DNA of 64,000 nucleotides from Candidatus Levyibacteriota bacterium (GCA_003152105.1 PLZJ01000002.1:6188-70187), one strand, 5' to 3'. Positions 16,858 to 63,437 are shown, numbered from the stretch's first letter. Program-made: numbers and translations. The notes: generated by a model from the letters alone, not told the origin.

Positions 16858-16858
16858 T

Positions 16859-19416: not shown

Positions 19417-19431
19417 TGTATATAATAAATT

Positions 19432-25200: not shown

Positions 25201-28200
25201 TGGCAATGGTGGAGCTGGAGGAAGTAATGCATCGGGAAATGGAGGATTCGGAGGAAATGGTGGAGGTCAACTAATTTTGGCAGGTAGTGGTGGCACAGGT
25301 GGAAATAGTACTCTTGCAAATCAATCAGGTGGATTTGGAGGACAAGGCGGAACTTTGGGTTTTGTAACTGGAAATGGAGGAAATGGTGGAAGTGATACTG
25401 CAGGATCAGGTGCTGCAACAAGTAATGGTGGAAATGGTGGAAATGGTGGGGATTTTAATCTTATTTTAGGCACTGGTGGACAAGGAGGAAGTTCGCATGG
25501 ATCTTCAAGTACGATCGGCCTTGGAGGAAATGGAGGATCTGTCTATCTACAAGCTGGAACTGGTGGAACTGCTGGCGCAGCAGGTAATGGCATAAATAAT
25601 GATGGACTTGGCGGAAATATAACAATTGCAGGTGGAACTGGAGGTTCTAGCACTCTTGGTACATTTGGTAATGGAGGAAAAGTGTATATTTATGGTGGCC
25701 TAGCAGGATCTGGAAGTGTTGGAAACGTTGTACTTGCTCAAACATCAGCAGGTGTAAATCAAGGTAATGTGGGAATTGGACAAGCAAATCCTACTTCTAT
25801 ACTCGACATTGGAACAGTAAATCCAACTATCCAAGCAGATAGTTCAAATACTAATTTAGCTTTATCAACAAATGGAACCGGTAGCCTATTTATTGATACA
25901 ACTGCTGCAGGAAATATTAAGATAGCGAGTAATGCTGCTCTACTTTCTTTGGGTAATTCTACTCACCTAACTACACTTCTTGGAAATAACATATATAATC
26001 CAAACATTACCGGAGCAGGAAATACAGGAGGAGTTTTCTATGATGCAAACAATCAAGGTTCACTTGCGGTTACTGCTGCTGGTTCTAATGGAAACTGTTT
26101 GTTATCTGGTGGAGCAGGTGCGCCAACATGGGGCAGTTGTGGATCAGCTGGCGGTAGTTATTGGCAACTAAATTCCAATGTAGTTTCTCCAGTTCAGAAT
26201 TATTTTGATCTATCTGTTGGCGGAACTGCAACTGCATCTGCTCCATTTCAAGTATTTGCAAGTAGAAATCCTTTAACCTTTACCCCAGCTGGGACAATAT
26301 CAACACTTGGAAACATACAGGTTGCAGGAGTTGCATCTTCATCTGCTTTAGCAGTTGGATATGGGCAAAACCAAGTTCAATCAGGTAGTGGAAATGCAGT
26401 GTTTTCTGGAAACGTAGGCGTAGGAACAAACACTACATCTAATGCACAACTTACAGATCAACTTTCATCATATACCCTCTTAAATAGTTTACAAGTTTAT
26501 TACAAATTTGATGAAAATAGTGGAACTATCGCCAATGATGCAACTGGCAATGGTAATACAGCTACATTAAATGGGGCAAATATTTGGACTTCAAGCGGGA
26601 AGATTAATTCAGGCTTACAACTAGATGGTTCAACAAATTATGTTAGCACCAACTATGTAGGTCCGCTTGGAAGTAATGCAAGAAGCGTAAATATATGGTT
26701 TAAGGGCTGGACAACTACTGAAAGAACTATATGGAATTACGGAGGCGCTGGAACTGCTGGAGCTTTAGATTTTGAAGAAGGGATTGGTGGAAATGGAAAT
26801 AGTATTGGATTTCGAACTGGTGGTGGAGCATATGGATATTGGACTACTAGTCTTACAAATGATGGACTATGGCATATGCTTACAGTTACTTATGCTGCTG
26901 GTGGATTAGAAAATACTATTAAACTTTATCTAGATGGCGTACAACAAAATAGTCTTACTGATAATTTTGGTGGAAATACCGTTAATACTACCTCAGGAGT
27001 ACTCACAATGGGTGATATTACTGGTACTGGAATATCCGGACTTGATGAATTTGCAGTTTGGGGAAGATCGCTTACATCTGCTGAAGTTACTCAACTTTAT
27101 AATAGCGGTTCAGGAAAACAATATTCCTTTACATCATTATTACAATTATTAAGTAATTCAGGTTCTGTCTTATCTTCTTTTAATGGCGCTGGTTCTTTAG
27201 GAATTGGAACTATCGCACAAAATGCACTTGATGTTTTTGGATCTGCGGCATTTGGTTCTTATGCTGGAAATCAATATGCACCAACCAATGGTCTTATTAT
27301 TTCTGGAAATGTGGGAATAGGAACAAGTAGTCCATCAGGGCAACTTCAAGTTTTTGGATCAAGTAATAATCCGACTGCTTCAATTTCTGCTAATTCTGCG
27401 TATACTGGCCTACTTGTAGATAATTCAGGCGGGACAAGTGCTCAAGGATCAATTTTTACTGCTTCAACTTCAGGCATAACTAAATTTACCGTTAACAATA
27501 ATGGACTTATTTTAGTCGGTACAAATTCAACTACTAATCCAGGAACCTTATCAGTATATGGAACCATACAAAGCAATGGCATTGCTAACGGTGGGACAGA
27601 TTTTCTCGCACTTGGCTTACCTTCTACTCCTACTGGACTACCACAGTATTTAGGTAATTGGCAAAGCACTCAGGCATGGGCTCTTGGGCCAATAAGTAAT
27701 TCTTCGACAGATAAAACCGTATATTTAGGAATAGCTTCTAATACTACAGGCACTTGGAATGGTGCAAGCTATGCAAACTTAAGTGTTGGTGGCAATGTAG
27801 CTGTTGGCTATCATTATCCCTCCTTTACTGGTATTGCATCACTTATCGTAAATCAACAAACCGGAGGTGCAGATCTAATTACTGCATCAGCTTCAGGTAC
27901 AACTAAATTTAATGTTGATAATAATGGAGATATAACAATAGCTGCAGGTTCATATATAGATACAAATGCTGGGGGCACTCTCTCTATAGGTACAAATAAT
28001 GCTACAACCCTTAATCTTGCAACAAATACCAATGTCACTGCCCTTTCAATTGGAAATGGCTCATCAGTTGATAAAATCTTTGGTTCAGGAATAACAACAA
28101 ATCAAAATAGCGTTCTTTACCTTGGTGCTGCTAATCAGCTTGGAGCCGCAACAACTGGTTCTTCAAATCTCTGCCTTGTTTCGGGAGCGAATACGCCAAC

Positions 28201-31200
28201 TTGGACAGCTTGTTCTGGGGTATCTTCAAACTATTGGATACAAACAAATGGAATTGGTGTAGCAAATGGTGGCTATACCGCTCTTGGAAATACCACAACT
28301 GATCTATTGATTGGTGGGACTTCAACTGCTTCTGCTGAATTTGCAGTACTAAACGTAGCGCCAGGTCTTACGCCAGTTGCTTCTGTTTCTGCAGGATCAT
28401 CTGGAACTGGAACCACAGAAAATTCAGGTATTTCACTATCTGCTAATGGAACTATACAAACTGTAGGAAGAACAACACTTACCGTTGGAGGCAATACAAC
28501 AGGAGATATATTTTTCAATCCTGGCGGTGTCGGACTTGGAAATTCTCTTTCCATAGATGTTGGTGGAAATGTAGGAATTGGTATGAATAATGGAAACGTT
28601 CCGAATGCACCCTTACAGATAAGGACTGCAATTCCTGATGTCAGCAATGGAACTGACATAAATATCACTGGAACCATGAGTTCTTTAACTAATGGTCAAT
28701 ATGGAGCAAGAATCACACCCCAACTTGGCATAAGCTCTAATCCTGCTAGTAATTTGTTTGAGTATGGGGCCGAAAACTCTCCTTCATTTAATATGGCAAA
28801 TACAGGAGTTACTTTTTCTAAAGTATTTTTAGTAGGCTCTGATGCTAATAATTTTCTTTCTGGAAATGGCATTCTTGGAACTTCAATCGGTTTTCAAACC
28901 GAAACAACACTAAATAATGATACAACTCGTGTTACTAATGCAATTGGATTAAATGTAGAAGGAATAGTAAAAAATTGTTTAACTTGTGTAGTTGGTAATA
29001 GTACGGGCATTGATATATTTGATCAAAGTGGTCTTGCCACAAATACAGCCAATCTTGTTATTAATACTAGTGGTACAGTACCAACTGGAAATTACAGTAT
29101 ATATAATGCAAGTTCACTACAAAACTATTTTGCAGGCAATCTTGGTCTAGGCACAGTTAGTCCAACTGCACAACTTCAAGTTGTTGGCACTAACTCTCCT
29201 ACTGCTTCTATTTCAGCAAATTCTGCGTTTACTGGTCTTGTCGTAGATAACAAAGGTGGAACAGCAAATCTAGGCGATATATTTACAGCATCTGCCTCAG
29301 GACTAGCTCGTTTCACGATTGCAAATAATGGAAATCTAACGTTAAATGGATCAACATATACAACAAACAACAATAGTGTTCTTTACACCAATGGGTCAGG
29401 AAATCTTCTTGCTGCAACAACAGGTTCTTCCAACCTCTGTCTTGTGTCTGGAGTATCTGCACCAACATGGACAGCTTGTTCAGGAGTTTCAAGCAACTAC
29501 TGGATACAAACAAATGGTATTGGGGTTGCTGGAGGAGGTTATACCGCTCTTGGAAATACCACAACAGATTTACTCATAGGTGGAACCTCCACTGCATCAG
29601 CTAAATTTGCAGTCTTAAACGTTGCACCAGGAGGAACTCCTGTTGCTTCTGTTTCAGCAGGAACATCTAGCTCAGGGACAACTGAAAACTCAGGTATTGC
29701 CCTTTCTGCAAATGGATCCATTCAGTCTGTTGGAAAAACAACACTTACTATTGGGGGAAATACCACCGGAGATATATCGCTTAATCCTGGAAATAATGGT
29801 GCAGGCACGCTCTATCTTGCGAGTACTGGTAATATAGGCATAGGAACTACAGCTCCTACGGCTCAACTTCAAGTTGGAGGAGGATTAAGTTCTCCAGGTA
29901 ATATCACAGTATCTTCTATTTCTGCAAATACTAATCAGGCTGGTTTAATAGTTGATAATGGCGGTGGATTAAATAATGCAGGAGCGATCTTTACTGCTTC
30001 TGCAGCTGGTATGTCGCGTTTTACTATTGCAAACTCTGGCAATCTAACGCTTAATGCATCAACTTATACCGCCAATAATATTAATGTTTTATATTCCAAC
30101 TCCTCTGGTAATGTTCTTGCAGCTTCAACTTCAACCGGAAATCTTTGTCTTACATCAAATAGTGGAGGTACTGCGGCTGCATGGGGCAATTGTTCTTCAG
30201 CTTCTAGTAACTACTGGCAGCTAAGCGGCAATGTTCTTTCCCCAGGACTTTTATCTGATGATTTAGTTATTGGAGGAAGCTCAACTTCTTCTGCGGCATT
30301 TCAGGTGTTTTCAGGTAAAAAAACATATGGAGCCATAACAGAACCAGCTGGAACTGCGTCTTCCTCTGGAGACTTATCTTTTGGAGCAGCAAATGGAACA
30401 ACGCAAAATTTAAATATATTAAATGGTAACTCATTTCAAATCAGAACTTCACCAGGTGGACCAGAAGGATTACTCGCTACTCCTGCACTGTATGTTAAAA
30501 ATAATGGCAACGTTGGCATTGGCACAGTAGCTCCAGCTTCAAAACTTGAGGTAAATGGTGACATTTCTTCAAAAAATACTTCTGTACAAGGATATGTATA
30601 TGCATACGATACTTCAGGATCACATTATGTGAGAATGTATAACGACGGTACAAACGGATACGTATCGCTTAGCGATGGAGCGACATTAGGGATTTCTTCA
30701 AATACATATGTCTTTACGCAAACACAACAATATTTTAGAGCTCAAGGAAACACCTTTACAAATTATGTTGGCTTACAAGATACAGATGCAACTGGAGGAA
30801 AACTTACAACTTCATTTGCAAATTTAAATATTAATACTGATATGACAACAGTGGTTAATACTACCGGAACAAATGTATCAGATATATTTGCTGCTTCAAG
30901 TTCTGCAACTACAAGATTTGTGATTAACTCAAATGGAAATGTTGGGATTGGCACTTCTCAACCAGGAGCACAGCTACAGATTGTAGGCACCAATGCGCCG
31001 ACGGCTTCCATTTCAGCAAACTCCGCCTATGCTGGGCTGGTTATTGATAATAAAGGAGGAACAAACAATGGCGGCGACTTGTTTACTGCGTCTTCTGCAG
31101 GACAAACTCGATTCAGAATTGCAAATACTGGTGCTGCCTTATTTCAGGGAGATACTTTAACTTCAATTGGTAATGGTGCTCAATATAATGGAAGTAATGC

Positions 31201-40559: not shown

Positions 40560-41279
40560 ATGAAAAAATTAATCAGCATATTACCAATCATACTAGTACT
40601 TCTCAGCTCGTTTGCGGGTCAAACTTTTGCCGATGATTATGGAGTATCTAACTATGGTAGTAATTGTAATAGTTCCTATGGTGGCAGCAATTATTCTGGT
40701 TCCTCATGTTCTGTTAGTACCATTAGCATAAACAAGCTTGTACAAAATCCAAAATCAAAACAATATGTGGAAAATCTCGCATTAACTGATCCTAATTATG
40801 CTCCAAATCAAATAGTGCCTTTTCAAATTAATATAACAAACACTGGCAATACTTCTCTTACAAATGTAAAAGTAGTAGATAGTTTCCCACAATACACAAC
40901 CTTTGCCGGTGGACAAGGCAGCTATAATCAAAGTCAAAATACTGATACCATTACCGTTGGTAGCCTAAATCCTAATCAAAGTGAATCTATTATGGTAGAT
41001 GGAAAAGTCGGAGATACTAACACTTTACCACAAAATCAGTCACAATTTTGTTTAGTTAATGAAGCAAGCGTAACGGCGGATAATATACCATCAAGCACAG
41101 CTAATTCTCAATTCTGTGTGACTCAGCAAATTTCCGGAGTTACAACTAAAGGAGGGCTTGAAGTAGCCTCACCAACAACTATATCAAAAACTCCTGGGAC
41201 TGGACCTGAAGCATTACCTTTACTTGCTCTTTTACCAACTGGATTATTAGGTGCTTTGCTTCGAAGAAAAACTAAATAA
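40560..41279 (+). CDS. Secreted DUF11/CARDB-like repeat-domain protein with the same C-terminal sorting-like signal (TGPEALPLL + hydrophobic + RRK)
   Basis: Signal peptide. 'FQINITNTGNTSLTNVKVVDSFP' is typical of the DUF11 conserved-repeat domain. C-terminus '...TPGTGPEALPLLALLPTGLLGALLRRKTK'. Confidence 0.55.
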   Translation: MKKLISILPIILVLLSSFAGQTFADDYGVSNYGSNCNSSYGGSNYSGSSCSVSTISINKLVQNPKSKQYVENLALTDPNYAPNQIVPFQINITNTGNTSLTNVKVVDSFPQYTTFAGGQGSYNQSQNTDTITVGSLNPNQSESIMVDGKVGDTNTLPQNQSQFCLVNEASVTADNIPSSTANSQFCVTQQISGVTTKGGLEVASPTTISKTPGTGPEALPLLALLPTGLLGALLRRKTK

Positions 41280-50926: not shown

Positions 50927-53900
50927 TTAGTTTGTACTGCTCACCTCCTTTCCATCAGAAGTTACCGTTTTAGGATTATCAACACTTACTGCTTGCCAAG
51001 AGAAATACACATTATTAGAAGCTGATTTATCAAGTAATATCTCAAATCCTTTTGTACTTATATTTGTAACGACATAATGAATATTTTCAGAAAGCAATAA
51101 GTTATTAATGGTATTTTGGCAATCACCAATGCTCTGCGAAACCACACAAGTATTGCTTGCGATTTCATTTTTATACTCTTGATCTGTTAACTGAGGCGTA
51201 GAAATTGAAATTGATACAACAGGTGAATTATCATATGGCTTACTAAAGTTAACCTGCACTTTATTTGCATTTTTATTTACAACAGCATATCCTGCAGTAT
51301 CATTATTGAATGTTGCTCTACCACTAAACTGTACATCTTTATGAAAAACAACATTATCAAAGAAATCAGATATTCCAGTAACAATAAGATTATGGGTAGT
51401 AATTGTATCCACTACGCTTAGGACTCCTTCAAATAAACCTCCCCCTTGTACGTCAAGCTCATTTTGTACAAGCGTCATTCCACCACTTGAGGTTAATGAT
51501 GAAGCAATTGATCCAGATGTTGATGCGTTTGGCAAAATCAGAGATGCAAATTGTGCACTGAGTGTACTTGTTTGATTAAAAAGAGAAAAAGATGCTTCTA
51601 GGCTTGCAACGCTTGATTCTAGATTTGCAATTCTATTTAAAAGTACTGTTGAATCTTGTGTAGCAGAATTAGTTGCATTTTTAGAATTAAGCAAACTAGT
51701 AAGCCCCACTATTTGATCTGCATGTATAGATTTTGCGTAAATATCTCCAGCAAATATCGCGTTACCGTTAGAATCTATTGTTAAGGCTGCACTGCTTGAT
51801 GCATCCGATGCAATTATTAGCTTATTGTTTTTACCAATAGATATAAGTAAATCAGAATTTGGCTGTGCTTCAATTTGTCGGGTCATAATGTCTTGCGTTA
51901 CTACTCGAGGAGCTATTACAGATTTTGAAGCAATAAGTTGATCAGCATACACCTGAGATAATCCGCCACTTTGCGTCGAAGCATCACTATTAGTTTGATC
52001 AACTAGTTTACCAAGTGTTTGTAGATCAGAAGTTTGTTGCGATTGACTATCTAAAGTCATACCAACTGGAGAATCGCCATCGACAAATGACCCATTAAAC
52101 GTTGCTGCTTTTATAAATGCAGTAATTTGACCCACTCCTGTGCCGCTATATGATTCCATTGCTTGACCAATTACAGGTCCTGCTTTTATTGCTTTTGCGG
52201 CAACGCCTGGAATTGAAGATGAAGTTAAGTAATCTCCTGGCTTGATGTCTCCATTTTCAGTAGTTACATTTACTGGTACGCGTCCAGAAAGCGCTATTGG
52301 TATTGCCTCACCCCCATTTATTGTTGAATCAGCTTGAGATAATCTAATTCCCGGATTTGCAGAAAAAACACCAATGATATGTTGATCAAATGGCTGTGAC
52401 TTATCTACAAACGTACCTTCATTTGGATCAATACTAACTACATCACCGGGCTGAAGTGTTGTATCACGAGTACCATAATCTTCAGCAACGTCATAAGCTC
52501 CAAAGCTTGTTGTTATGCCATGGTCAAAAACGAATTGACCTGTTGATTGCGATCCTTGATACACACTCGCAGATTGTGATGCAATAAATGAAATAGAACC
52601 GGTATTAAAAAATCCATTTTGCTCAGGTGATTGTGATGTTGATGCATGGAATACTAATGAATATGATTGGTCAAGCGTATTAGTATACTGATATATCTCA
52701 GCACTTCCACTCATTTTTTCTGTACCTGCAAATAAACTACCATTATATGGCTGTAACACAGTTACGCCATCAATTGCAGTTGTACACGTACCATTGTTAC
52801 ATTGAGCATTTGTTGGGCCACCTATTTGACCAGCAGCACCTTGAGAAACACGTGTCCAATTTGTGTCACCATCATAACGATAAACTTCAGCTTTTCCTCC
52901 TGGATCATTAGAATTTCCAATGAGCGTTCCGATATATAACTTATTGTTATATACAGCCATTGACGAAACTTGATCAATTGATCCTGTGCCTCCAGTAGCA
53001 ATAGTACCTTGAGCTGATGAAACTATTACAAAATTTGTAGCAGTTTGACTAGCCCATGTATTCGAATCGTCAACCCTCATTACTTCAGCTTTTGCTTTTT
53101 GAGTAGTGCCAAAGTATACATGTCCATTCCATTCAGCCATTGCAGTAATTCCATTAACCGTAGTGTCTGGAGGAGAATTACCTTCTGCTACCCATGAGCT
53201 CGTACCTCCAACACCGGTGCTATATACATAAATTGCTCCTAATCCAAATTTGTTAACACCAATATATAAAAGATTATTAGCAACTACCATTGCTGCAACC
53301 GCATCATAAGCTGCAGAACCACCTTGAACAATCGTTCCAGGTACACTGTCAATTGCAGTCCATGTTGTTCCCCCATCATAACGATAAACTTCTGCTCGAC
53401 CATTAGTAGTCCCTGTACCAATAAATAATTTACCGTCATATACTGCCATAGCAGTTATTGCATTAATTTGCGTAGTACCACCACTTCTTATGGTTCCTGC
53501 AGTAGCTTGAGATATGACAGACCAGTTTGTACCATCATATTGGTAGACTTCAGCTCCTCCTGGTTTTGAAGTTCCGACAATCAATCTATTGTTATAAACA
53601 GTCATTGCAGAAATCGTTGAAATATTTGTGGTAGTTAAAATTTGACCTGGTGTTGTTGTTGAAATTCTTGCCCAAATTCCTGTACTACCATTATATCTAT
53701 ATACCTCAGCCGCACTATTTTTTGCGGTTCCAACATAAAGACTTCCGTTATAAACGGTAGATGCTGATATAGAGGCAATACCTGAAGAAGCAGCGGTTGA
53801 AAGTTGTCCAGCTGCATTTGAAACTGCTGTCCATGTCTGAGTTGCAGCAGCAGCTGTATTTGCCTGACTACCAATCATGATATTTCCGCCTTCTACATCC

Positions 53901-56900
53901 AATTTTTGCGCAGCACTTGAAGTACCGATTCCTATGTTTCCATTTTGTTGTATCACAAACTGAGTTAATCCAGAAGATGAAGCGGTAAATAAATCTCCTA
54001 GTCCATTATTATTCACTACAAGCGAAGCGAAAGAAGTAGTTCCAGATACTGAAGCAACAGATAATGTTCCACTATTTCCTCTAATATCAAAATTGGATAG
54101 AGGTGTCGAAGTACCAAATCCAAATCTCGTTGTTGCGCTAGAGGTGCCTATCAAAACATTTCCGTTTGCATTGATACGCAAATCCCCTTCACCAAAAACT
54201 GAGGAATCCCAATTGGTACCAATTTCAATAGCATTTTGTGAAGTTGTTCCTACACTCGCTTTTGCTAAACCATCGATAAATAACCCATCTGTTGGAGAAT
54301 TTATTATCCCTCCTACGCCTGTTGGAGTTATTCTTATGCCACCAGCTAATCCACCCGTAGCGGTATTATTGTTGTTTATGATAGATTTAAATCCAGAAAT
54401 AATATTTCCTGATGCAGGTTTTACATTCCACGTAGTTTGAAGTGCATTAATTCCTGATACAGTTGGTTCTTGCCCTACTACATTACCAATATCTACCAAA
54501 TCGTTAGCTGGTAAAAATCCAGCATCTATTTCTAGATTTTGCGCAGTAGGTCTTAAATTACCGATTTCAACTACACCACTATTTGTAATAGTAAATCTTG
54601 TAAGACCTGATGACGAAGCAGTGAATATGTCTCCTGCCCCTTTATTATCGATCAATACTGCTGCAAAGGACGTTTTGGCTGAAATGCTTGAGGCAGGTGT
54701 CGTTCCAATTGTTGAGCCAGCAATACCTAAGGCACTTGCTGCGTTAATATCAAATTGACCATTCATAAATCCATCTGGCGTTTTTCCAGGAGATAGATTT
54801 ATAATTCCAAAGTCAGCGGAAGCAGTAGAAACACCACCTATAAGAAGATCTGTTGTAGTATTACCAAGTGCTGTATATCCTCCATTCGCAACACCTATAC
54901 CACTTTGTTGTATCCAATAATTAGGCCCCTGAGAACCGGTAGCGCAACTTCCCCATGATGGCGCAGTACCTGTTCCTCCCGATACTAAACAATTTCCGTT
55001 TGCTGCCGTGGTTGCAGCGAGTATATTACCTGAAGAGTTAGTATATAGAACGCTATTATTACCCGTAGTATACGTAGCACCATTTACCGTTACGTTTCCG
55101 TTATTGTTAATAATAAAACGAGCAAGTCCCGAAGTAGATGCGGTAAATAAGTCGCCTTTACCGGTATTATCAATAACAACAGATGCAAATGAAGTTGAAC
55201 CTGAAATTGATGCAATTGGAAGAGTGCCAAAATTAGCAGCAGTAATATTATTAGCGGCTGCAGAACGAATATCGAGTGTTGCTAGTGGTAAATTTGGACT
55301 CGCGTTATTTAATGTTAAAAATCCAGGCAAATACGTTTGTCCGTTTTGTATCGATACCTCCCAGTTAGAATTGTTTGAATAATAAAACCCTGGACTATAT
55401 GTATTTCCATTTGTATCAACCTTAAAACTTCCACTATCTGTTTGTATTGCATTTTTCGAGGGCACTCCCCCATTATTTGCACCTGGAATTTCTAAGTAAG
55501 CCTGCGGATTTACTACTCCTATCCCAACATTTCCGTTATTTTGTATAACAAAGCGAGTAAGCCCAGAAGAGGAGGCAGTAAATATATCACCCAGATTTGC
55601 TGTTCCTCCTTTGTTATCAACTACTAAACCTGCATAGGCAGAATTTGCAGAGATAGACGCAGTTGGAGCATTGGTTCCAACAATCTGAAACAATGAAGAT
55701 GGAGCTGTTGTACCGATACCAAGATTACCAGCTAGATAATTTTGATAGGTTGATGAATCATAGATTCCATAGTTACCTGATGGCACCGATTGTGTCCCTA
55801 AAAGAGCAAGTGTGTTGTTAGTTGCAGCAGATAGACCAACAACATTAAGTCCTGCTTGATTGGTAACCTCACCTCCTGAAAAGGATTGAGCGTCTTCAGC
55901 AAAAAAGCCAATATTTGTTCCAACTATTCCAGTATAGGTACCATCATTCTTAAGCTTAGAATCAACGATATAAACCGTAGAAACACTATGCGAGGTTCCA
56001 GACAAACGAATATTAGTTTGTGTTCCATAGATTCCTCCCCCACTTACCAAATCTACCCCAGGAACAAAGGCAGCTTGATTTCTTATGCCCTCTGTTTGCG
56101 CATCTGCATTCACATTTATTGTTGGGGCAATAAGGACACCTTGACTTGTACCAGCTGCCGTATTACTTACTGTGACGCTTCCATTAAGAGTTAAGTCAGA
56201 TGTGACTGCTGAAGTTCCTGTTGCAGATCCTCCTAGTAAAATAACTGCCGTATTTGAAACAGTCCCGTTAACATTTAATGGGTTAGGTGGGTTCGTTACA
56301 TTAACTCCTATGCCAACATTACCATTACTGGTAAGAATAAGTGAAGATTGTCCTCCTGGTTTGAATTGTATGTCTCCTGTTGTAGAACCTCCAAGCGTTA
56401 ACATGGTTCTTCCAACAGTTTGCACATCTCCTCCTGCGTCAATATATACTCCTGACTTTTCTGAAGTTCCTGAAGAAGAAAGACCTGCAGAAACAGACGC
56501 AGTTGGTAGTCCCCCACCAATGACATTAAGAACTGAGAATTCTGCAGAGGAAGTAGCAGTACCACCAATGAGAAGATCTGAAGTTAGATTACCAAGAGCA
56601 GTATATCCTCCGTTGGAAACACCAATACCTGATTGTTGTATCCAGTAATTAGCTCCTGCAGTACCACTACCGCAACTTCCCCATGTTGGCAATCCAGTAC
56701 CGTTTGTTGTTAAACAAGTTCCCGTTGCAGCAGCTCCTGTTACTGCTTGGCCTAAATTATTTGAACTATCGACATAGAGTACCGCATTGGAATTTGATGA
56801 TCCTCCTCCAAAGCCAGGTAATTTTATAGTGACACCAGATGATCTACCCAAGGTAATTTGATTTGAATTCGCACCTGCGAGTAGTAAAGTATTTGAACCA

Positions 56901-57643
56901 TTGGTATCTAATGAAAGTCCACCTGCAGCATTTGGTTGAAGCAGTACGGGAGTAGTTCCTGTAATTGAAAGACCATTATATGTTTTGCTAGTCAAATTTT
57001 GCGCTGTTGCTAAATCTACAAGTGAGATTGAACCAGTAGTAGGTAATGTTGCATTTGTAGTACCTGAGGCAGTAAAAGTTAATGTGCTTCCAGAAGTATT
57101 TGCAAATGCTATCGTTGAACCATTTGCAACTTGTAAAGTTCCAGATGTACTAGCATTTCCAGAAGTATCTTGTACAGTTAATCCAGCTACGGTTTGAGAA
57201 TTAAACGCATACGGAACAGCTGTAAATTGCACTCTAGGACTCATCTCGCTATCACCAGTATTAGTTCCATTTTGGTCTTTTGTTATCTGGATTCCCAAAT
57301 ACATTCCAGACCAGTTGAAGTTAATACTTGCTGGAAGTGCCGTAGTCGCTCCCAAAGGTACTCGAAAAATTCCATTCGTCGTCGTAACGCTATCTGTTTC
57401 AGTCCAAAATTGAGTTCCAGATCCAACATTTGGGTTATTATAAATACTAAAAACTACTGTGTATGTTCCATCTGGTACATTTGTTCCATCAGATTTTACT
57501 AATTTTCCTTGAAAATTAATTTGTGGATTTATCCCTGTTGCTGAAAAAATTGGGTATGGTAAATATCCAAAAAAGAGAGATATAATTAACATACTCCAAA
57601 AAGAAAAAAATACTAAATGTTTTGCAAAAATATGTCGTAACAT
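50927..57643 (-). CDS. Giant (2238 aa) secreted/surface protein, paralog of the 22277..33631 protein. It lacks the recombinase-like N-terminal domains but shares the N-proximal domain, Cys-loop modules, 'GN(V/L)GIGT...AQLQ...ASISANSA...FTAS.SG..RF' modules and the C-terminal module.
   Basis: Signal peptide/TM 'LVFFSFWSMLIISLFFGYLPYPIFSATG'. aa ~30-160 align with giant-1 aa ~420-545 (FQG.L.D..G.P...LW.E...V.V.NG.F...LG). C-terminal 'AYDVAEDYGTRD...GDVVSI...IPIALSGRVPVNV...GDYLTSSSIPGVAAKA' aligns with the giant-1 module. Confidence 0.8.
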   Translation of the reverse strand: MLRHIFAKHLVFFSFWSMLIISLFFGYLPYPIFSATGINPQINFQGKLVKSDGTNVPDGTYTVVFSIYNNPNVGSGTQFWTETDSVTTTNGIFRVPLGATTALPASINFNWSGMYLGIQITKDQNGTNTGDSEMSPRVQFTAVPYAFNSQTVAGLTVQDTSGNASTSGTLQVANGSTIAFANTSGSTLTFTASGTTNATLPTTGSISLVDLATAQNLTSKTYNGLSITGTTPVLLQPNAAGGLSLDTNGSNTLLLAGANSNQITLGRSSGVTIKLPGFGGGSSNSNAVLYVDSSNNLGQAVTGAAATGTCLTTNGTGLPTWGSCGSGTAGANYWIQQSGIGVSNGGYTALGNLTSDLLIGGTATSSAEFSVLNVIGGGLPTASVSAGLSSSGTSEKSGVYIDAGGDVQTVGRTMLTLGGSTTGDIQFKPGGQSSLILTSNGNVGIGVNVTNPPNPLNVNGTVSNTAVILLGGSATGTSAVTSDLTLNGSVTVSNTAAGTSQGVLIAPTINVNADAQTEGIRNQAAFVPGVDLVSGGGIYGTQTNIRLSGTSHSVSTVYIVDSKLKNDGTYTGIVGTNIGFFAEDAQSFSGGEVTNQAGLNVVGLSAATNNTLALLGTQSVPSGNYGIYDSSTYQNYLAGNLGIGTTAPSSLFQIVGTNAPTASISANSAYAGLVVDNKGGTANLGDIFTASSSGLTRFVIQNNGNVGIGVVNPQAYLEIPGANNGGVPSKNAIQTDSGSFKVDTNGNTYSPGFYYSNNSNWEVSIQNGQTYLPGFLTLNNASPNLPLATLDIRSAAANNITAANFGTLPIASISGSTSFASVVIDNTGKGDLFTASTSGLARFIINNNGNVTVNGATYTTGNNSVLYTNSSGNILAATTAANGNCLVSGGTGTAPSWGSCATGSQGPNYWIQQSGIGVANGGYTALGNTTTDLLIGGVSTASADFGIINLSPGKTPDGFMNGQFDINAASALGIAGSTIGTTPASSISAKTSFAAVLIDNKGAGDIFTASSSGLTRFTITNSGVVEIGNLRPTAQNLEIDAGFLPANDLVDIGNVVGQEPTVSGINALQTTWNVKPASGNIISGFKSIINNNNTATGGLAGGIRITPTGVGGIINSPTDGLFIDGLAKASVGTTSQNAIEIGTNWDSSVFGEGDLRINANGNVLIGTSSATTRFGFGTSTPLSNFDIRGNSGTLSVASVSGTTSFASLVVNNNGLGDLFTASSSGLTQFVIQQNGNIGIGTSSAAQKLDVEGGNIMIGSQANTAAAATQTWTAVSNAAGQLSTAASSGIASISASTVYNGSLYVGTAKNSAAEVYRYNGSTGIWARISTTTPGQILTTTNISTISAMTVYNNRLIVGTSKPGGAEVYQYDGTNWSVISQATAGTIRSGGTTQINAITAMAVYDGKLFIGTGTTNGRAEVYRYDGGTTWTAIDSVPGTIVQGGSAAYDAVAAMVVANNLLYIGVNKFGLGAIYVYSTGVGGTSSWVAEGNSPPDTTVNGITAMAEWNGHVYFGTTQKAKAEVMRVDDSNTWASQTATNFVIVSSAQGTIATGGTGSIDQVSSMAVYNNKLYIGTLIGNSNDPGGKAEVYRYDGDTNWTRVSQGAAGQIGGPTNAQCNNGTCTTAIDGVTVLQPYNGSLFAGTEKMSGSAEIYQYTNTLDQSYSLVFHASTSQSPEQNGFFNTGSISFIASQSASVYQGSQSTGQFVFDHGITTSFGAYDVAEDYGTRDTTLQPGDVVSIDPNEGTFVDKSQPFDQHIIGVFSANPGIRLSQADSTINGGEAIPIALSGRVPVNVTTENGDIKPGDYLTSSSIPGVAAKAIKAGPVIGQAMESYSGTGVGQITAFIKAATFNGSFVDGDSPVGMTLDSQSQQTSDLQTLGKLVDQTNSDASTQSGGLSQVYADQLIASKSVIAPRVVTQDIMTRQIEAQPNSDLLISIGKNNKLIIASDASSSAALTIDSNGNAIFAGDIYAKSIHADQIVGLTSLLNSKNATNSATQDSTVLLNRIANLESSVASLEASFSLFNQTSTLSAQFASLILPNASTSGSIASSLTSSGGMTLVQNELDVQGGGLFEGVLSVVDTITTHNLIVTGISDFFDNVVFHKDVQFSGRATFNNDTAGYAVVNKNANKVQVNFSKPYDNSPVVSISISTPQLTDQEYKNEIASNTCVVSQSIGDCQNTINNLLLSENIHYVVTNISTKGFEILLDKSASNNVYFSWQAVSVDNPKTVTSDGKEVSSTN

Positions 57644-57705: not shown

Positions 57706-57734
57706 TTGACATTTTTTGCATAAAATTGTATATT
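57706..57734 (+). promoter_or_regulatory. Sigma70-like promoter candidate for the HTH gene at 57852
   Basis: TTGACA 57706-57711, 17-nt spacer, TATATT 57729-57734. Confidence 0.35.
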
Positions 57735-57851: not shown

Positions 57852-58139
57852 ATGGATAATTTATTAAATATTAATCAAGTCGCATTTATTTTAAAAGTGC
57901 ATCCCCTAACTGTTAGAAGGTACATTAAGGAAGGGAAATTAAAAGCAGTAAAAGTTGCTGGCAATGTAAGAATAAAAGAAGCAATGCTCCAAGATTTCAA
58001 TAGCAAAGAATTTACACCAACACCCAAAGAATTTCCAAAATTTCGCTTAAATAAAAATCCCGCAAAGCTATTTTCTAAAGATGATCCATTTTTTAGATTA
58101 CAAGGGAGAGGAGCAAGTCTTCACTTGTCAGATAAATAG
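57852..58139 (+). CDS. Small HTH DNA-binding protein (excisionase-family HTH), paralogous in fold to the 1678..1893 protein
   Basis: 'INQVAFILKVHPLTVRRYIKEGKLKAVKV' HTH. Confidence 0.55.
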   Translation: MDNLLNINQVAFILKVHPLTVRRYIKEGKLKAVKVAGNVRIKEAMLQDFNSKEFTPTPKEFPKFRLNKNPAKLFSKDDPFFRLQGRGASLHLSDK

Positions 58140-58141
58140 TT

Positions 58142-58567
58142 ATGCAAAGCATCAGCAAAAAAGTTTATATAACTCCAAGTGTATTTTTTGCATTTATTGA
58201 TAGAGCGCATCCAAAATATCAAACAGCAGGTGCTTTTTTTCGTTATTTTGCTCTAGAACAATATGCTTTATATTCTGACGCAATTTCTATAAGCAATACC
58301 TATTCCGAGCTATATGACAAAATATCACCTTCACTTGCTAAAGATTTTCTAAGATCGATTTACATTGGATCATTTAATATTCTACATCCTGAAGAAAGTG
58401 ATATGAAAGCTGCACTCAAAACGCTGGTAAATTACCGTACAACTGATCTTACTTATCCAGAATCAGTAATTGCTGTTTTAGCAAATAGAAACCGTATTCC
58501 TCAAATATGCTCGTTTGAATATCTACATCCTCTATTTGGTTTATCTTTATTTTATTTACCAATATGA
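58142..58567 (+). CDS. Hypothetical 141-aa protein immediately downstream of the HTH gene (possible degenerate PIN-like partner)
   Basis: 2-nt gap after the HTH gene. N-terminal 'KVYITPSVFFAFIDRAHP' loosely resembles a PIN beta1-alpha1 segment but lacks the first catalytic Asp. Confidence 0.3.
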   Translation: MQSISKKVYITPSVFFAFIDRAHPKYQTAGAFFRYFALEQYALYSDAISISNTYSELYDKISPSLAKDFLRSIYIGSFNILHPEESDMKAALKTLVNYRTTDLTYPESVIAVLANRNRIPQICSFEYLHPLFGLSLFYLPI

Positions 58568-59649
58568 AATATATTTTTATATTTATATTCCTTCTAATGA
58601 TTCTGGCATCACCAGTGCTTGCAACGAGTTATACACCATCTAGCACCCACTATCAGATTCGAGAATATGGATTCGGTGCAGGAGGAACTGCAACTTCATC
58701 ATCGCAAAGATATAATCTATTTGGCACTGCAGGTGAAGTTGAATACGGATCTCAAAGCTCAACGCTTTATGTGCTTAATTCTGGCTTATCATACGTAAAT
58801 CAAGCAAATGTACCTCCTGCACCTACGGTTTCTAATCCTTCAAATTTCTACAATCAATTACAAGTTACGATAAACACAACAGGCAATAGTCCAACTGATA
58901 CTCAATATGCAATCGCAGTATCTACTGACAATTTTGCGACATCAAAATATGTACAGATAGATCATACTATAAATAATACTATCGCATGGCAAACTAATGC
59001 ATCATGGATTGGAGGCAACAGCTATGTAACATTAATTGGTCTTACTCCAAGTACGACTTATTATGTTAGAGTTGCAGCAAAACAAGGAAGCTTTTCGCAA
59101 ACTCAATTTGGACCAATAGCAAACGCAGCAACTACAAGTCCTTCGATTTCGTATTCTATGGGGGTTGGATCTTCTTACCCAGGTGTAAACCCACCTTATG
59201 CAGTAAGCATAGGCACAATTAATGCTGGGGGTATTACAACCGCTACAAATAATGTTTATGTAAATTTAAGTACAAACGCAAATGCAGGGGGTACAATATA
59301 TATCTACGATGCAAATGGCGGTTTACTGAGCCCTACTGCGGGAGGATATGTTCTACCGTCAATAAGCGCTGATCTTTCGTCAGGATCAGTTTCAGAAGGA
59401 TACGGAGCGATTTACAACACCACATCTCAAACCTCAGGAGGTCCAATGGAAGCTCTTTCACCATTTAACGGATCAGGAAGTGTTGTTGGAAACCTACAAA
59501 CTACGGTTCAAAGTATGTTTGACTCAACAAGCTCACCGGTTACTGGAGGACAAGTATCATTTACGCTTAAAGCAAAAGCAAAAAATACAACTCCAGCTGC
59601 AAATGATTATTCGGACACCTTAACAGTGCTAGTCGCTGGTTCATTTTAG
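58564..59649 (+). CDS. Secreted surface protein with an FN3-like domain and a WxL-like/aromatic C-terminus (paralog of the cluster-A proteins)
   Basis: Signal peptide. N-terminal 'S..Y.(I/L)' triple repeat homologous to the 16045 protein. FN3-like 'LIGLTPSTTYYVRVAAKQ'. C-terminus 'TPAANDYSDTLTVLVAGSF'. Confidence 0.45.
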   Translation: MKYIFIFIFLLMILASPVLATSYTPSSTHYQIREYGFGAGGTATSSSQRYNLFGTAGEVEYGSQSSTLYVLNSGLSYVNQANVPPAPTVSNPSNFYNQLQVTINTTGNSPTDTQYAIAVSTDNFATSKYVQIDHTINNTIAWQTNASWIGGNSYVTLIGLTPSTTYYVRVAAKQGSFSQTQFGPIANAATTSPSISYSMGVGSSYPGVNPPYAVSIGTINAGGITTATNNVYVNLSTNANAGGTIYIYDANGGLLSPTAGGYVLPSISADLSSGSVSEGYGAIYNTTSQTSGGPMEALSPFNGSGSVVGNLQTTVQSMFDSTSSPVTGGQVSFTLKAKAKNTTPAANDYSDTLTVLVAGSF

Positions 59650-59733
59650 TTTTATCTTAATTATGAATTATTATTTTGAATTCCATTACTTGACAAACAC
59701 AACCATAATCAACAATACTATTAATACTAGGTT

Positions 59734-60852
59734 TTGAATCCAATGAATTATCTGTCCAAATTATCATCTAATTTCCGAGTAAATAAAAATATGGGTCGCA
59801 AAAATATAGTTGCTGTAGCGATAATATTTGCGCAAATCATAGTCCTCGCACTCTACCAATATGCACTACCCACAAAAGCAAACGCAACAAACTTTGCATA
59901 CCTTCGACTAGATAGACTTTCAGCATCCACTTCACTTCCTTTAACAGGAACTGTTTGTCTTCAACCACAAACAACAGGAACCCAATCCCAAATTGTTGTA
60001 CAATTTCCAGCAAGCTTCACAGTAAGCGGTACACAAGGCAACTGGAGCGTAAATACAACTAACTTACCTTCAGGAACAACAGCGTGGCCTGGTATAACAG
60101 GTCCTTCCGCAGGAGCAAGTATTTCTGGAACTACTGTCACATTCGCAGGCTATGCACTTCTATCCACTTCAACTACTTATTGTTTTAAGTTTTCTGGAGG
60201 AACTGCTGTTCAATCAAATCTCGGATCAACTACCGGTACAGTAACAGGTAAAATACAAACATTTTCAGTCACACAACCATTTGCTACAAATCCCGGTGCA
60301 GCAATCGATAATTATAATTATGCGGAAAGCTTAGTTACAAATCCAAATGATGTAATTGCCGTAACTGCAACAGTATCTGCTTCATTTACATTTTCGATCT
60401 CTACTGCCTCAGCTCTATTTCCTTCAACAGGTATTGTAACATCAGGTCATGGCTCAGTTGCAGGACCAACTATTACTGTAACTGCTTCTGGAAATTCTCA
60501 TAATGGGTGGATTGCGTGGGTACAAAGTGCAAATGGAGCATTAAGTTCTCCATCAAGCGGAGGATCTATTACAAGTACTTACAATGCAGGATCTGCAACC
60601 GATTTATCTAGTGTTAATTCAGGATACACGATACTTGCTTCTCAACTGGCAAATAATCCTACGATTGATAATTTCTATGGTACTACTGATGGTAATGGTA
60701 TTGACACAAAATGGGAACAAATTGCACACGGTACAGCACCAACTGCTGGAGATCAATTTTTAATGACACTTAAAGCAAAAGCATCTGCATCTACTCCAGC
60801 TGCAAATGATTATAGTGATACAATATCTGTAACCGGAGCTGGCCAATTCTAA
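59734..60852 (+). CDS. Secreted surface protein, paralog of the 58564 protein with the same C-terminal motif
   Basis: Signal anchor. C-terminus 'LKAKASASTPAANDYSDTISVTGAGQF' is near-identical to the upstream gene's end. Confidence 0.45.
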   Translation: MNPMNYLSKLSSNFRVNKNMGRKNIVAVAIIFAQIIVLALYQYALPTKANATNFAYLRLDRLSASTSLPLTGTVCLQPQTTGTQSQIVVQFPASFTVSGTQGNWSVNTTNLPSGTTAWPGITGPSAGASISGTTVTFAGYALLSTSTTYCFKFSGGTAVQSNLGSTTGTVTGKIQTFSVTQPFATNPGAAIDNYNYAESLVTNPNDVIAVTATVSASFTFSISTASALFPSTGIVTSGHGSVAGPTITVTASGNSHNGWIAWVQSANGALSSPSSGGSITSTYNAGSATDLSSVNSGYTILASQLANNPTIDNFYGTTDGNGIDTKWEQIAHGTAPTAGDQFLMTLKAKASASTPAANDYSDTISVTGAGQF

Positions 60853-60863
60853 CATGCTGTGTT

Positions 60864-61892
60864 ATGCGTAAAAAATTGTATTTATTTTTTTCTTCTTTTT
60901 TTCTTCTTTTCTTATTCACCACATTACCTACATTTGCCCAAAATGTACCCCTTAATATCACTCTTTCCCCCACTTATTTTGATCTAACAGCAAATCCAGG
61001 AGATACTATTTCTAATATAATACGCGTTCGAGCAAATGGTACGTCAGCTATTCCACTGCACATTGTTGTAAAAAAATTAGGTGCAGATCAAAATGGAAAT
61101 CTTACGATACAAGATATTACTGATGATTCAGCTAATTGGATTACATTTCCTAAAACACAGATTACGGCAATTGCACAAGATTGGACCGAGGTACCTTTTA
61201 CTATTAAAATTCCAAAAACTGCAGGATTTGGCTATTATTATGCCATATCTTTTGTAGCTGGTAGTAATCAAACAGCAAATGCGAAAGTTGCTGGAGCTGG
61301 TGCAGTGCCGGTGCTATTAACAGTTAATAGACCTGGTGCAGCAGTAAATGGACAATTAGTTCGCTTTTCGACAGATCATTACATCAATGAATATCTTCCA
61401 ATTAATTTTACATCGGTAATAAAAAGTACAGGTAATATAGAACTGAAACCTCACGGCGATATATTTATAAGAGGTATTGGAGAAAGTGAAATTGGCACCA
61501 TAGATGTTAATCTAAGCCAAGGCATAATTATTCCAGGAACAAACAGAACGTTTAACTCCTCTTGGGATGATGGATTTGTCGTTAGAGAGCCAGTCATTGA
61601 AGACGGCAGACCATTAACTGATGCAAGAGGAAATACAATAACTCATCTTGTATTTCATTGGGATAAATTGACAAGTATTCGAATTGGTAAATACACCGCG
61701 AATCTAATAATGGTTTATGATAATGGACAAAAAGACGTATTGATTGAAGGAACTACGACATTTTGGGTATTACCGTATAAAATAATTGGTGGGGCAATAA
61801 TTCTTATTGTAGCGCTTATACTACTTATACGCTTCCTATTAAAATGGTATGTGAAAAAAGAGATTAAAAAAACATCTAGAAGAAGACATTAG
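60864..61892 (+). CDS. DUF916/DUF3324-like cell-surface protein with a C-terminal TM anchor
   Basis: 'NITLSPTYFDLTANPGDTISNIIRVRANG' closely fits the DUF916 N-terminal pattern (YFDL...PG...). 'TFWVLPYK' then TM then KKEIKKTSRRRH. Confidence 0.55.
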   Translation: MRKKLYLFFSSFFLLFLFTTLPTFAQNVPLNITLSPTYFDLTANPGDTISNIIRVRANGTSAIPLHIVVKKLGADQNGNLTIQDITDDSANWITFPKTQITAIAQDWTEVPFTIKIPKTAGFGYYYAISFVAGSNQTANAKVAGAGAVPVLLTVNRPGAAVNGQLVRFSTDHYINEYLPINFTSVIKSTGNIELKPHGDIFIRGIGESEIGTIDVNLSQGIIIPGTNRTFNSSWDDGFVVREPVIEDGRPLTDARGNTITHLVFHWDKLTSIRIGKYTANLIMVYDNGQKDVLIEGTTTFWVLPYKIIGGAIILIVALILLIRFLLKWYVKKEIKKTSRRRH

Positions 61893-61903
61893 ACTTACCC
61901 ACA

Positions 61904-62866
61904 TTGTATAATGAATTCATGTCAGTATCAAAAATAGTTCTTAAATCGATATACTGCTTAGTTTTTATAGCTTTAATCACATTTCACAATAAACCAGTTT
62001 TTGCAGCGCCTAAAGATACTATTACCGCTATCCCTTCAATTGAACAACTTGATCTTCAAAAAGATAAATCCCAGTATGATTTAACCTATGAAAATACTAC
62101 TTCCCAACCAATTGAGCTTTCCTTCTCTGCAAGAGACTTCTCAGATTTTGACGATGGATGGAAAGTTAGCTTTTTGAGTCAAACAGATGCGAGTAACTAT
62201 CATTACTCACTCTCTTCTTGGATACACTTTAGCACACAAGATTTAGTCGTAAATCCAAACGATTCCAAAAAAATTACAATTTATATTGATAATAATCGAA
62301 TTTCACCCGGAAGTCATTACGCAGCAATACTCGCTTCTCTAAATGATATTGATAGATCTAAGACTATTGGCGTACATGGGGTATTATCTTCTTTACTATT
62401 TGTTACAACAAGCACTGGGTTGGAAGTGGAAGACGCCAAAATAATTGCGTTTCAGCCAATTCGTTATTTCTTTGAGATTCCTGAAAAATATATTTTTAGA
62501 TTTCAAAATCAAGGAAATGTTGACAGTACTCCGTACGGATTAATAGATGTTTATAGCCCATTTGGGAAGCTATTATCAGAAACGGTTGTGAATGATGGAT
62601 CGTTAATTACGCTACCCGAATCAATTAGGCGATATGATTTATTAATTCCAAAACCTTCTGGATTCTTATTCCCAGGCACGTATAAAGCAACATTAACGCT
62701 TCATTATGGAAAGACAAATAAAAAACTTTATACTGAAATCTACTTCTTTTCGCAAGGAAGTATTGATATCTTTATCACTGCATCACTATTAATTATCTTG
62801 ATCATCGCTTTCTATTATTTAAGAAAAACGGGTAAACTTAAGGCATTATATGAAAAGATGAAATGA
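61904..62866 (+). CDS. DUF916/DUF3324-like cell-surface protein (more divergent), C-terminal TM anchor
   Basis: Signal peptide, beta-rich body, C-terminal 'FITASLLIILIIAFYYLRKTGKLK'. Confidence 0.4.
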   Translation: MYNEFMSVSKIVLKSIYCLVFIALITFHNKPVFAAPKDTITAIPSIEQLDLQKDKSQYDLTYENTTSQPIELSFSARDFSDFDDGWKVSFLSQTDASNYHYSLSSWIHFSTQDLVVNPNDSKKITIYIDNNRISPGSHYAAILASLNDIDRSKTIGVHGVLSSLLFVTTSTGLEVEDAKIIAFQPIRYFFEIPEKYIFRFQNQGNVDSTPYGLIDVYSPFGKLLSETVVNDGSLITLPESIRRYDLLIPKPSGFLFPGTYKATLTLHYGKTNKKLYTEIYFFSQGSIDIFITASLLIILIIAFYYLRKTGKLKALYEKMK

Positions 62867-63437
62867 CGTTCTGAAATATGTTGCTTATAAAGCTATTATC
62901 ACTACCTGAAGCGACAAGTGAAAATTCCCTACTATTAACTAAACAGAAAGCATCATATTCCACTTGATCTTGCAATTTAATATATTCCTTACAAGGGTTA
63001 CCATCTATTGTTACATCTTTTTCCTGATATTCATAATTGTGGCTATTTCTAAATAATATTTCTGGCAAGCTATCTATTGTCATAGATTGATCACGCTGAA
63101 TTGCTTGAACAATGAAATTTACCGTAGGCATACGCTCATCAAATTCTAAACTTTCAAGAATAATTTTACTTTGTTTTATATTCGCATCATTACCATGATA
63201 TATAATCGAAGATGAGGGATATAGAAAGGACATATTTTTACCTACATATTTAATAGATCCTTGTGAAGTATTTTTCGCATTTACCATCTGTGGATGATCT
63301 TGCATATTAGAAAGCAATTTAACCCTATCCTTTTGTGGCAATGAATCCGAGGAAGGAGCATTAAGAGATGATAATACTACATACCCTCCGATAAAAAGTA
63401 CTAATAATACTGCAAAAATCACAATTAAAACTTTCAT
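62838..63437 (-). CDS. Hypothetical N-terminally anchored protein
   Basis: N-terminal TM (VLIVIFAVLLVLFIGGYVVL). No recognised motif. Confidence 0.35.
   Translation of the reverse strand: MKVLIVIFAVLLVLFIGGYVVLSSLNAPSSDSLPQKDRVKLLSNMQDHPQMVNAKNTSQGSIKYVGKNMSFLYPSSSIIYHGNDANIKQSKIILESLEFDERMPTVNFIVQAIQRDQSMTIDSLPEILFRNSHNYEYQEKDVTIDGNPCKEYIKLQDQVEYDAFCLVNSREFSLVASGSDNSFISNIFQNVISSFHIMP

Follow-up and report, generated by a model that had tools for sequence, protein, structure and literature searches.

Bacteria of the candidate phyla radiation (CPR, or Patescibacteria) make up a large share of bacterial diversity. Most of them appear to be attached to other microbes, and their attachment organelles are only now being identified. 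The closest described system to the one considered here is the Pam pilus of Ca. Mycosynbacter amalyticus (Troman et al. 2026 preprint, bioRxiv 10.64898/2026.03.03.709456), from which the NCBIfam 'CPR-type pilus' models PamR, PamT and Pam_pilin_C (NF058578, NF058579, NF058581) derive. In that work, cryo-electron microscopy (cryo-EM) of PamA and PamB filaments revealed pilins that begin with a beta-sandwich, continue with a donated linker strand and end in a truncated immunoglobulin (Ig)-like domain; conservation in both proteins is highest in the donated linker and in the site that binds it. PamC and PamD were proposed to be chaperones (PapD/FimC-like, two Ig-like domains, C-terminal transmembrane helix) and AlphaFold complexes were published. 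PamT, a single-domain protein counted with PamA, PamB and PamE among the pilins, was proposed to form the tip and the RbmA-like PamR to serve as anchor; a protein of tail fibre-like type was co-localised with pam operons (bioRxiv 10.64898/2026.03.03.709456). The present analysis concerns a 64,000-nucleotide stretch of Candidatus Levyibacteriota bacterium (GCA_003152105.1 PLZJ01000002.1:6188-70187; below, the window) and in it a four-gene locus, locus B (58564-62866), which encodes the proteins S1, S2, C1 and C2.

The second system relevant to this locus is the WxL/Csc cluster of Bacillota, in which a membrane-anchored WxLIP protein (DUF916, DUF3324 and a transmembrane helix) accompanies at least two secreted WxL proteins, whose C-terminal WxL domain (PF13731) contains two Trp-x-Leu motifs, and a small LPXTG-anchored CscD-type protein. 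According to a prediction (Hassan, Chaudhuri & Williamson 2023, PMC10599100), the WxL beta-sandwich is completed by a WxLIP hairpin that turns into a strand; this is the same logic as proposed for PamC and PamD. The motif YFDL is singled out in the WxLIP literature as the mark of DUF916/WxLIP.

Locus B is read here, with a probability of roughly 0.7, as the operon for a Pam-type pilus: a usher-less, chaperone-assisted donor-strand-exchange filament of CPR/Patescibacteria with S2 as the major subunit, S1 as the tip or an adaptor, and C1 and C2 as anchored chaperones. The window comes from a CPR/Patescibacteria genome, as does the Pam system. Comparison with the M. amalyticus Pam proteins was made through the NCBIfam models and the descriptions in the preprint.

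The proteins of locus B

The sequence-only reading had described locus B as four open reading frames (ORFs), two for secreted and two for anchored proteins. All four were found on one strand at the positions it gave (Table 1). S1 and S2 are separated by 84 bp, S2 and C1 by 11 bp, and C1 and C2 by 11 bp; G+C in the window is 35 %. Public gene calls on an identical metagenome contig place the starts slightly later (58597, 59743, 61919) and otherwise agree. By hydropathy, S1 and S2 possess a hydrophobic segment at the N-terminus only. C1 and C2 have an N-terminal hydrophobic segment and also a C-terminal helix (residues 299-331 and 282-308, respectively) which is followed by a basic tail.

The C-terminal domains of S1 and S2 are related (hhalign probability 99.5 %, E 1e-22; profile search E 2e-20; BLAST identity 35 %). 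The two proteins end in TPAANDYSDTLTVLVAGSF and TPAANDYSDTISVTGAGQF, with 14 of 19 residues identical, and this motif is the most conserved stretch in both families. A near-identical C-terminus had been noticed before; the likeness stands, but the pattern given for it was one residue short between V and G.

The N-terminal module of S1 links it to Pam. The NCBIfam model CPR_pilus_PamT matches S1 residues 5-76 (E 2e-9) and is matched by 36 of the 44 S1-family members. The same module aligns with the family of the 16045 protein, a small PamT-like subunit encoded in a second locus of the window, locus A (hhalign 96 %, E 4e-9). It contains S..Y.[LIV] repeats at residues 27, 47 and 66, and three copies were reached by 2 of 5000 shuffles. 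Both this triple repeat and an FN3-like domain had been attributed to both secreted proteins. They are present in S1, but S2 has no copy of the repeat and lacks the FN3-like domain. In S1 the Pfam fn3 match is below threshold (E 1e-3) and the S1-family profile consistently matches many solved FN3 domains in the PDB (E 2e-3 to 0.1). S1 has at least 292 homologues, at 45-70 % identity, and contains no cysteines.

The AlphaFold2 (AF2) monomer model of S2 has a mean predicted local distance difference test score (pLDDT) of 83 and consists of two beta domains joined by residues 184-198 (NPNDVIAVTATVSAS). This linker has no secondary structure in the model and its pLDDT is below 50 at residues 190-193, yet D187, I189, V191, A193 and V195 are near-invariant across 55 homologues. 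Such a combination of conservation and absence of structure in a monomer model is expected of a donor strand. The architecture of the monomer model (N-terminal beta-sandwich, single linker strand, C-terminal Ig-like domain) agrees with the Pam pilin plan. At least 356 homologues of S2 were found. They are about 345 amino acids long, many are from Saccharimonadales, and only one pair of cysteines, located in the N-terminal domain, is conserved.

The AF2 model of C1 (mean pLDDT 91; predicted template modelling score 0.78) shows a two-Ig-domain PapD/FimC-like fold and a C-terminal transmembrane anchor, with a long helix at residues 305-341 and a loop of pLDDT below 50 at residues 136-142. For C2 the anchor is indicated by hydropathy. 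The best Foldseek matches of the C1 model in the PDB are the Enterococcus faecium WxLIP chain 9i25_C (E 3e-10) and 9i1y, followed by the pilus chaperones CsuC, CfaA, YadV and EcpB (E 1e-8 to 3e-6; target TM-score 0.5-0.56). The 9i25_C entry is described as 'WxLIP from E. faecium locus A bound to long WxL'.

The same relationship was found by profile methods. Among PDB sequences, the anchored-family profile matches EfmWxLIP1 best (E 0.0018), with the YFDL motif in the aligned stretch. Against a profile of Bacillota WxLIPs (seven plasmid-borne proteins, signal peptide excluded) the hhalign probability is 97.7 % (E 1.7e-12, 199 columns), and Pfam PF06030 (DUF916) is matched by 26 of 43 anchored-family members. 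The earlier description of these proteins as DUF916-like is borne out by these results. The claim that C1 is the clearest DUF916 protein is not: C1 carries the YFDL motif, but it scores 18.7 bits, under the Pfam cut-off of 27.3, and the locus A protein 16835 scores 31.9 bits. No Pfam match to DUF3324 was detected in domain 2 of the anchored proteins or in their family. The WxLIP relationship holds at the superfamily level, as judged by hhalign and structural matches.

C2 fits the chaperone profile (E 1e-62) and is 27 % identical (58 bits) to the 19432 protein of locus A. A short C2-type paralogue is the last operon gene in most related loci. C2 was also considered as a PamR equivalent. This seems unlikely: the NCBIfam PamR model does not match it and it retains chaperone-type features.

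A synteny check in related genomes had been proposed in the sequence-only reading. In nearly all of 80 loci, taken from species-representative genomes (best identity to the window 41 %; neither the window's own genome nor M. amalyticus is among them), the genes stand in the order S1-type, S2-type (1-2 copies), C1-type (1-2 copies), short C2-type. The S1-S2-C1-C2 operon is also present on metagenome contigs. In many loci a gene similar to the large gene upstream of locus B (giant 2) lies divergently upstream, and in the closest relatives three small flanking genes are kept as well. Named homologues come from metagenome-assembled genomes (MAGs) of Patescibacteria, Saccharimonadales, Levybacteria and Moranbacteria.

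In 10 Saccharimonadia loci the S2-type gene lies beside PamR-like genes. For example, the PamR-like protein of locus L079 matches NF058578 (E 1.3e-36) and is the sole NCBIfam match in that operon. In L079 (7250-9234), and also in L072, L073, L080 and L063, one or two PamR-like genes replace the S1-type gene before the S2-type pilin, and tail-fibre-like genes and a short chaperone come after. The operon therefore has at least two layouts.

Locus A, the giant genes and the flanks

Locus A has the same gene content as locus B in another order (secreted, anchored, secreted, anchored, compared with secreted, secreted, anchored, anchored in B), as had been noted before. Its 16045 protein matches the NCBIfam models PamT over the full length (E 9e-9; 35 bits, cut-off 240) and Pam_pilin_C (E 2e-4; 21.9 bits, cut-off 55). 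In its family Pam_pilin_C is matched by 49 of 52 members and PamT by 41 of 52. The C-terminal domains of the 16045 and 17947 proteins are 27.6 % identical. A-type and Pam_pilin_C C-terminal domains contain four conserved cysteines (TTCDxGxC ... YRC...G.DC). Judging from these sequences, locus A would be an older paralogous set of the same system, nearer to the named Pam proteins.

The anchored proteins of the two loci, four in all, are mutually related (20-27 % identity, 26-58 bits), with no clean A1=B1 / A2=B2 pairing. BLAST and plain profile search found no relation between the pilins of A and B. The C-terminal domain of the 16045 family and that of S2 are connected by hhalign (87.7 %, E 3e-6, 150 columns up to the C-terminus). 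Together with the alignment of the S1 module described above, this upholds the paralogy of A and B that had been proposed. The anchored proteins are thus far diverged, and the secreted ones of A and B can be connected by profile-profile comparison only, so A and B are ancient paralogues and not the result of a recent duplication. With two anciently diverged sets in one genome, there may be more than one type of filament, or filaments may be mixed.

Each locus lies beside a giant repetitive gene, and the two giants are related (giant 1 matches giant-2-type proteins with E 1e-151). Giant-2-type proteins have phmmer matches in 55 of 84 related loci, although some of these are possibly compositional. 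The best matches sit upstream on the opposite strand, as in the window (e.g. L014, L037, L005, L054). Giant 2 is probably a 'tail fibre-like' surface protein of the kind that accompanies pam operons. The start of giant 1 contains phage-integrase N-terminal SAM-like domains (PF02899, E 8e-19, two stretches; PHROG integrase at residues 166-250), and their fusion to a huge repetitive surface-type protein is odd. The 17 kb between the giants encode Rho, a LysM-M23 peptidase, glycosyltransferases and a DUF11 protein.

Upstream of S1 lies a gene pair. The HTH_17 protein (Pfam E 1.5e-9) is the probable first gene or regulator of the locus B operon, and its gene precedes the operon in 15 related loci and also in L004. 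The 141-amino-acid (aa) protein has no match in Pfam or PHROG, and its gene is kept at the same place in 16 loci. The 4-bp overlap of this gene with the start of S1 suggests co-transcription and a regulatory role of the pair. The best promoter-like site of the region, TTGACA-17-TATATT at 57706-57734, is a hint only; promoter and terminator scans gave no enrichment over shuffled sequence. Downstream, the convergent gene for a 199-aa protein is conserved in position in 18 loci and also in L004.

Two further observations concern the related loci. In proteins of 759-930 aa beside the operon (position and strand: L015 15172-, L024 11151-, L058 2610+, L067 9648-) an N-terminal domain of S2 type was recognised (profile positions 17-189, E 1e-48 to 1e-55), and they may be large adhesins with a pilin-type N-domain. 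In addition, many MAG records with the operon (L005-L084) are titled 'uncultured Gammaproteobacteria', 'Bdellovibrionales' or 'Pseudomonadales', and these labels are evidently wrong.

Table 1. Features of the window, with positions counted from its first nucleotide
Feature	Position	Residues	Strand	Description or basis
S1	58564-59649	361 aa	+	Sec-secreted; tip-type subunit candidate
S1 signal peptide		1-20	+	Sequence
S1 triple SxxYxL module	58642-58776	27-71	+	PamT-like N-module
S1 FN3-like domain	58816-59118	about 85-185	+	Weak Pfam fn3; family profile vs PDB
S1 pilin C-terminal domain	59125-59646	188-361	+	Aligned with S2 domain
S2	59734-60852	372 aa from TTG	+	Likely start 59791 or 59743; candidate major pilin
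S2 N-terminal beta-sandwich	59887-60339	35-180 (model)	+	AF2 monomer model
S2 conserved linker, putative donor strand	60340-60384	184-198	+	AF2 monomer model and conservation
S2 C-terminal domain	60385-60849	199-353	+	AF2 monomer model
C1	60864-61892	342 aa	+	Signal peptide and C-terminal membrane helix; anchored chaperone candidate
C1 Ig-like domain 1	60951-61328		+	AF2 model; contains YFDL
C1 flexible hairpin loop in Ig-like domain 1	61260-61301		+	AF2 model
C1 Ig-like domain 2	61341-61772		+	AF2 model
C1 transmembrane helix, then basic tail	61776-61856		+	AF2 model, hydropathy
C2	61904-62866	320 aa	+	Likely start 61919; second, shorter, divergent chaperone-like anchored protein
HTH_17 (excisionase/MerR-like) DNA-binding protein	57852-58139	95 aa	+	Pfam HTH_17; PHROG excisionase/regulator
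Conserved partner of HTH protein	58142-58567	141 aa	+	2 bp after HTH gene; overlaps S1 start
N-terminally anchored protein	62838-63437	199 aa	-	Convergent with C2, overlaps its end by 29 bp
Locus A	16045-20451		+	Distant paralogous set, ~38 kb from locus B
Locus A PamT-like small subunit ('16045 protein')	16105-16857		+	NCBIfam PamT, Pam_pilin_C
Locus A chaperone (16835)	16835-17875		+	PF06030
Locus A large pilin (17947)	17947-19416	489 aa	+	C-terminal domain shared with 16045 protein
Locus A chaperone (19432)	19432-20451		+	Related to other anchored proteins
Envelope-type protein	20527-21423	298 aa	-	Weak Ig-like/CarboxypepD_reg matches, hydrophobic segment
Giant 1	22277-33631	3784 aa	+
DUF11-repeat envelope-type protein	40560-41279		+	Between the loci
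Giant 2	50927-57643	2238 aa	-	Divergent from locus B operon; weak H-lectin Pfam match only

Alternative readings and proposed assembly

Several results weigh against a Pam-type pilus. No Pam model is reached at the NCBI curated cut-offs: S1 scores 37 bits against PamT (cut-off 240), in a match that includes about 15 signal-peptide residues, and S2 is matched by none of the models (1 of 55 S2-family members touches Pam_pilin_C). The link of the B-type C-terminal domain to Pam_pilin_C depends on a single profile-profile alignment, the one at 87.7 %, and B-type domains lack the four cysteines conserved in A-type domains. Foldseek comparison of the S2 model with a PDB library that lacks the PamA and PamB entries (25PZ, 25QA) gave generic tandem Ig-like matches only (integrins, cohesins, MSCRAMM adhesins). 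None of the eight proteins of loci A and B matches PamR, and no ORF of the window is similar to the PamR-like protein of L079. ATP synthase genes are absent from the window, where only Rho has an ATP-synt_ab domain. The S1, S2 and C1 sequences and the S2, S1 and 16045 family profiles found no pilin in the PDB; the matches there were FN3 domains for S1 and EfmWxLIP1 for the chaperone profile only. NCBIfam scans of the S2 homologues and the chaperone family yielded no useful Pam match. The E-values of the Pam matches are nevertheless significant and consistent within families (36/44, 41/52 and 49/52), yet below the cut-offs, so these proteins are distant relatives of the Pam proteins and not equivalogs.

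The main competitor is a non-filamentous surface complex of WxL/Csc type, in which anchored WxLIP-like proteins would stabilise secreted adhesins by strand complementation without polymerisation. The homology of the anchored proteins to WxLIP, including a top structural match to a WxLIP with its client bound, speaks for it, as does the similar cluster logic (a shorter and a longer secreted protein with a common C-terminal domain, then an anchored protein). A last-strand motif, Y-x-x-T-[IL]-T-[WV], is also alike in both systems. This reading is nonetheless unlikely. The secreted proteins, which the sequence-only reading had called WxL/Csc-type, show no detectable relation to WxL domains. PF13731 (WxL) does not match S1, S2 or any of 55 S2 homologues, the three pilin families compared with 13 WxL domains give hhalign probabilities of at most 1.8 %, and the C-termini read TVLV and SVTG at the W-x-L position. 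The pilin C-terminal domain as a WxL domain was thus rejected at the sequence level, with the last-strand motif as the only likeness. For the secreted proteins, links were found to NCBIfam's Pam models instead, and their M. amalyticus homologues were seen as filaments by cryo-EM. Trp-x-Leu motifs and an LPXTG CscD-type gene are absent; no LPXTG motif is present in the four proteins and the gaps of 11-84 bp leave no room for an extra gene. The host belongs to Patescibacteria and not to Bacillota, and strand donation from subunit to subunit is the best explanation for the invariance of the S2 linker strand. Two other readings are very unlikely. Unrelated secreted Ig-like/FN3 adhesins or envelope proteins might happen to lie beside Ig-like membrane proteins with no chaperone-client relation; Ig-like folds are common, the Foldseek matches of S2 are generic, and several family matches are under curated thresholds. 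Against such chance stand the strict four-gene order and tight spacing over about 80 genomes, the C-terminal domain common to S1 and S2, and the specificity of the top C1 matches, a WxLIP with bound client and pilus chaperones. Equally improbable is that B is a recent segmental duplicate of A, the two forming one mirror-symmetric super-locus with the giants as a single unit; of this, the sequence-only reading had put forward a roughly mirror-symmetric super-locus and a test for segmental duplication. The loci do each contain two secreted and two anchored genes next to related giant repetitive proteins. However, the chaperones are too divergent and lack one-to-one pairing, the pilins of A and B are undetectable from each other by BLAST or plain profile search, and the gene orders differ. 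The orientations are not mirrored, since locus A and giant 1 are both on the plus strand while giant 2 and locus B are divergent, and 17 kb of housekeeping genes lie between the giants. Moreover, the B-type operon is a separate conserved unit in about 80 genomes. The duplicate and super-locus reading is largely refuted.

On the preferred reading, a Pam-type pilus, assembly might proceed as follows. All four proteins, which have signal-peptide-like N-termini, would be exported by Sec. C1 and C2 would then be held in the cytoplasmic membrane by the C-terminal helix and basic tail, with the two predicted Ig-like domains outside. The hairpin of chaperone domain 1 would supply the incomplete C-terminal domain of S1 or S2 with a beta-strand and keep this client assembly-competent, as suggested by the solved WxLIP-WxL complex (WxLIP being the closest structural match) and the published AlphaFold complexes of PamC and PamD. 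The linker of the next S2 subunit (DVIAVTATV) would displace the chaperone strand, and S2 would polymerise head to tail. By analogy with PamT, S1, with its PamT-like N-module and FN3-like domain, may sit at the distal end as the tip or an adaptor. The work on Ca. M. amalyticus suggests that the filament, possibly in concert with the giant tail-fibre-like protein that is encoded divergently, could help to reach or hold a host cell.

The homology of the chaperones to WxLIP is the only point beyond the description of the Pam system, as WxL and DUF916 are unmentioned in the preprint (bioRxiv 10.64898/2026.03.03.709456). In the literature searched, WxL proteins were connected with a donor strand only in a 2013 review. 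It is tentatively proposed, at somewhat less than even odds, that Pam-type anchored chaperones and Bacillota WxLIPs are one family, and that one usher-less pathway of single-membrane bacteria, with an anchored chaperone that completes its client through donor-strand complementation, exists in two forms, Pam pili and WxL clusters. If true, the Pam system could not be called exclusive to CPR without qualification, and WxL proteins would be predicted to undergo handling, and perhaps polymerisation, by means of strand exchange. The homology ties a CPR organelle to the long-puzzling surface-protein clusters of lactobacilli, enterococci and Listeria, and offers both fields a concrete, testable assembly mechanism. 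The four-gene Pam-type version (tip-like subunit, major pilin, two anchored chaperones) is widespread, being found in about 80 species-level genomes. Because locus B-type pilins escape the current NCBIfam Pam models, annotation under-counts the system.

Comparison with known systems

Locus B resembles WxL/Csc clusters in its anchored component, which has the YFDL motif, two Ig-like domains, a flexible hairpin and a transmembrane helix at the C-terminus, and in having secreted clients with a shared C-terminal domain followed by the anchored protein. It differs in that the clients are not WxL proteins by any sequence test, an LPXTG CscD is absent, DUF3324 is undetected and the phylum is another one. 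WxL proteins are also described as peptidoglycan-bound and not as filamentous.

With archaic and alternative chaperone-usher pili (CsuC-CsuA/B, CfaA-CfaB, EcpB, YadV) the locus shares the chaperone fold, a conserved C-terminal strand with an aromatic last residue and, presumably, donor-strand complementation and exchange. Unlike them, the system of locus B has no outer membrane or usher (no usher-sized gene was found in or beside the operon), and its chaperones are membrane-anchored instead of soluble in the periplasm. Pam pilins possess an extra N-terminal domain and their fibres are extended, not coiled (bioRxiv 10.64898/2026.03.03.709456). Features of sortase pili were not detected either: S1 and S2 end in ...AGSF and ...AGQF without a C-terminal hydrophobic segment, and the operon contains no sortase.

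Compared with Pam pili, the matches of locus B are far under the NCBI cut-offs, its C-terminal domains lack the conserved cysteines, and S1 joins a PamT-like N-module, an FN3-like domain and the C-terminal domain in one protein. The genes of the window are split over two loci ~38 kb apart, whereas the Pam operon is a single unit of seven genes, and the window lacks equivalents of PamR and PamE as well as neighbouring ATP synthase genes. The likeness covers the CPR host, Sec-secreted subunits with a beta-sandwich, conserved linker and C-terminal Ig-like domain, a small PamT-related subunit, and a pair of paralogous chaperones that have two Ig-like domains and carry a transmembrane helix at the C-terminus. 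Both systems do without an usher, sortase or ATPase, and giant 2 is probably the counterpart of the tail fibre-like neighbour of Pam. By sequence comparison, locus B is a new, divergent relative of the system described in 2026, and not an equivalog of it.

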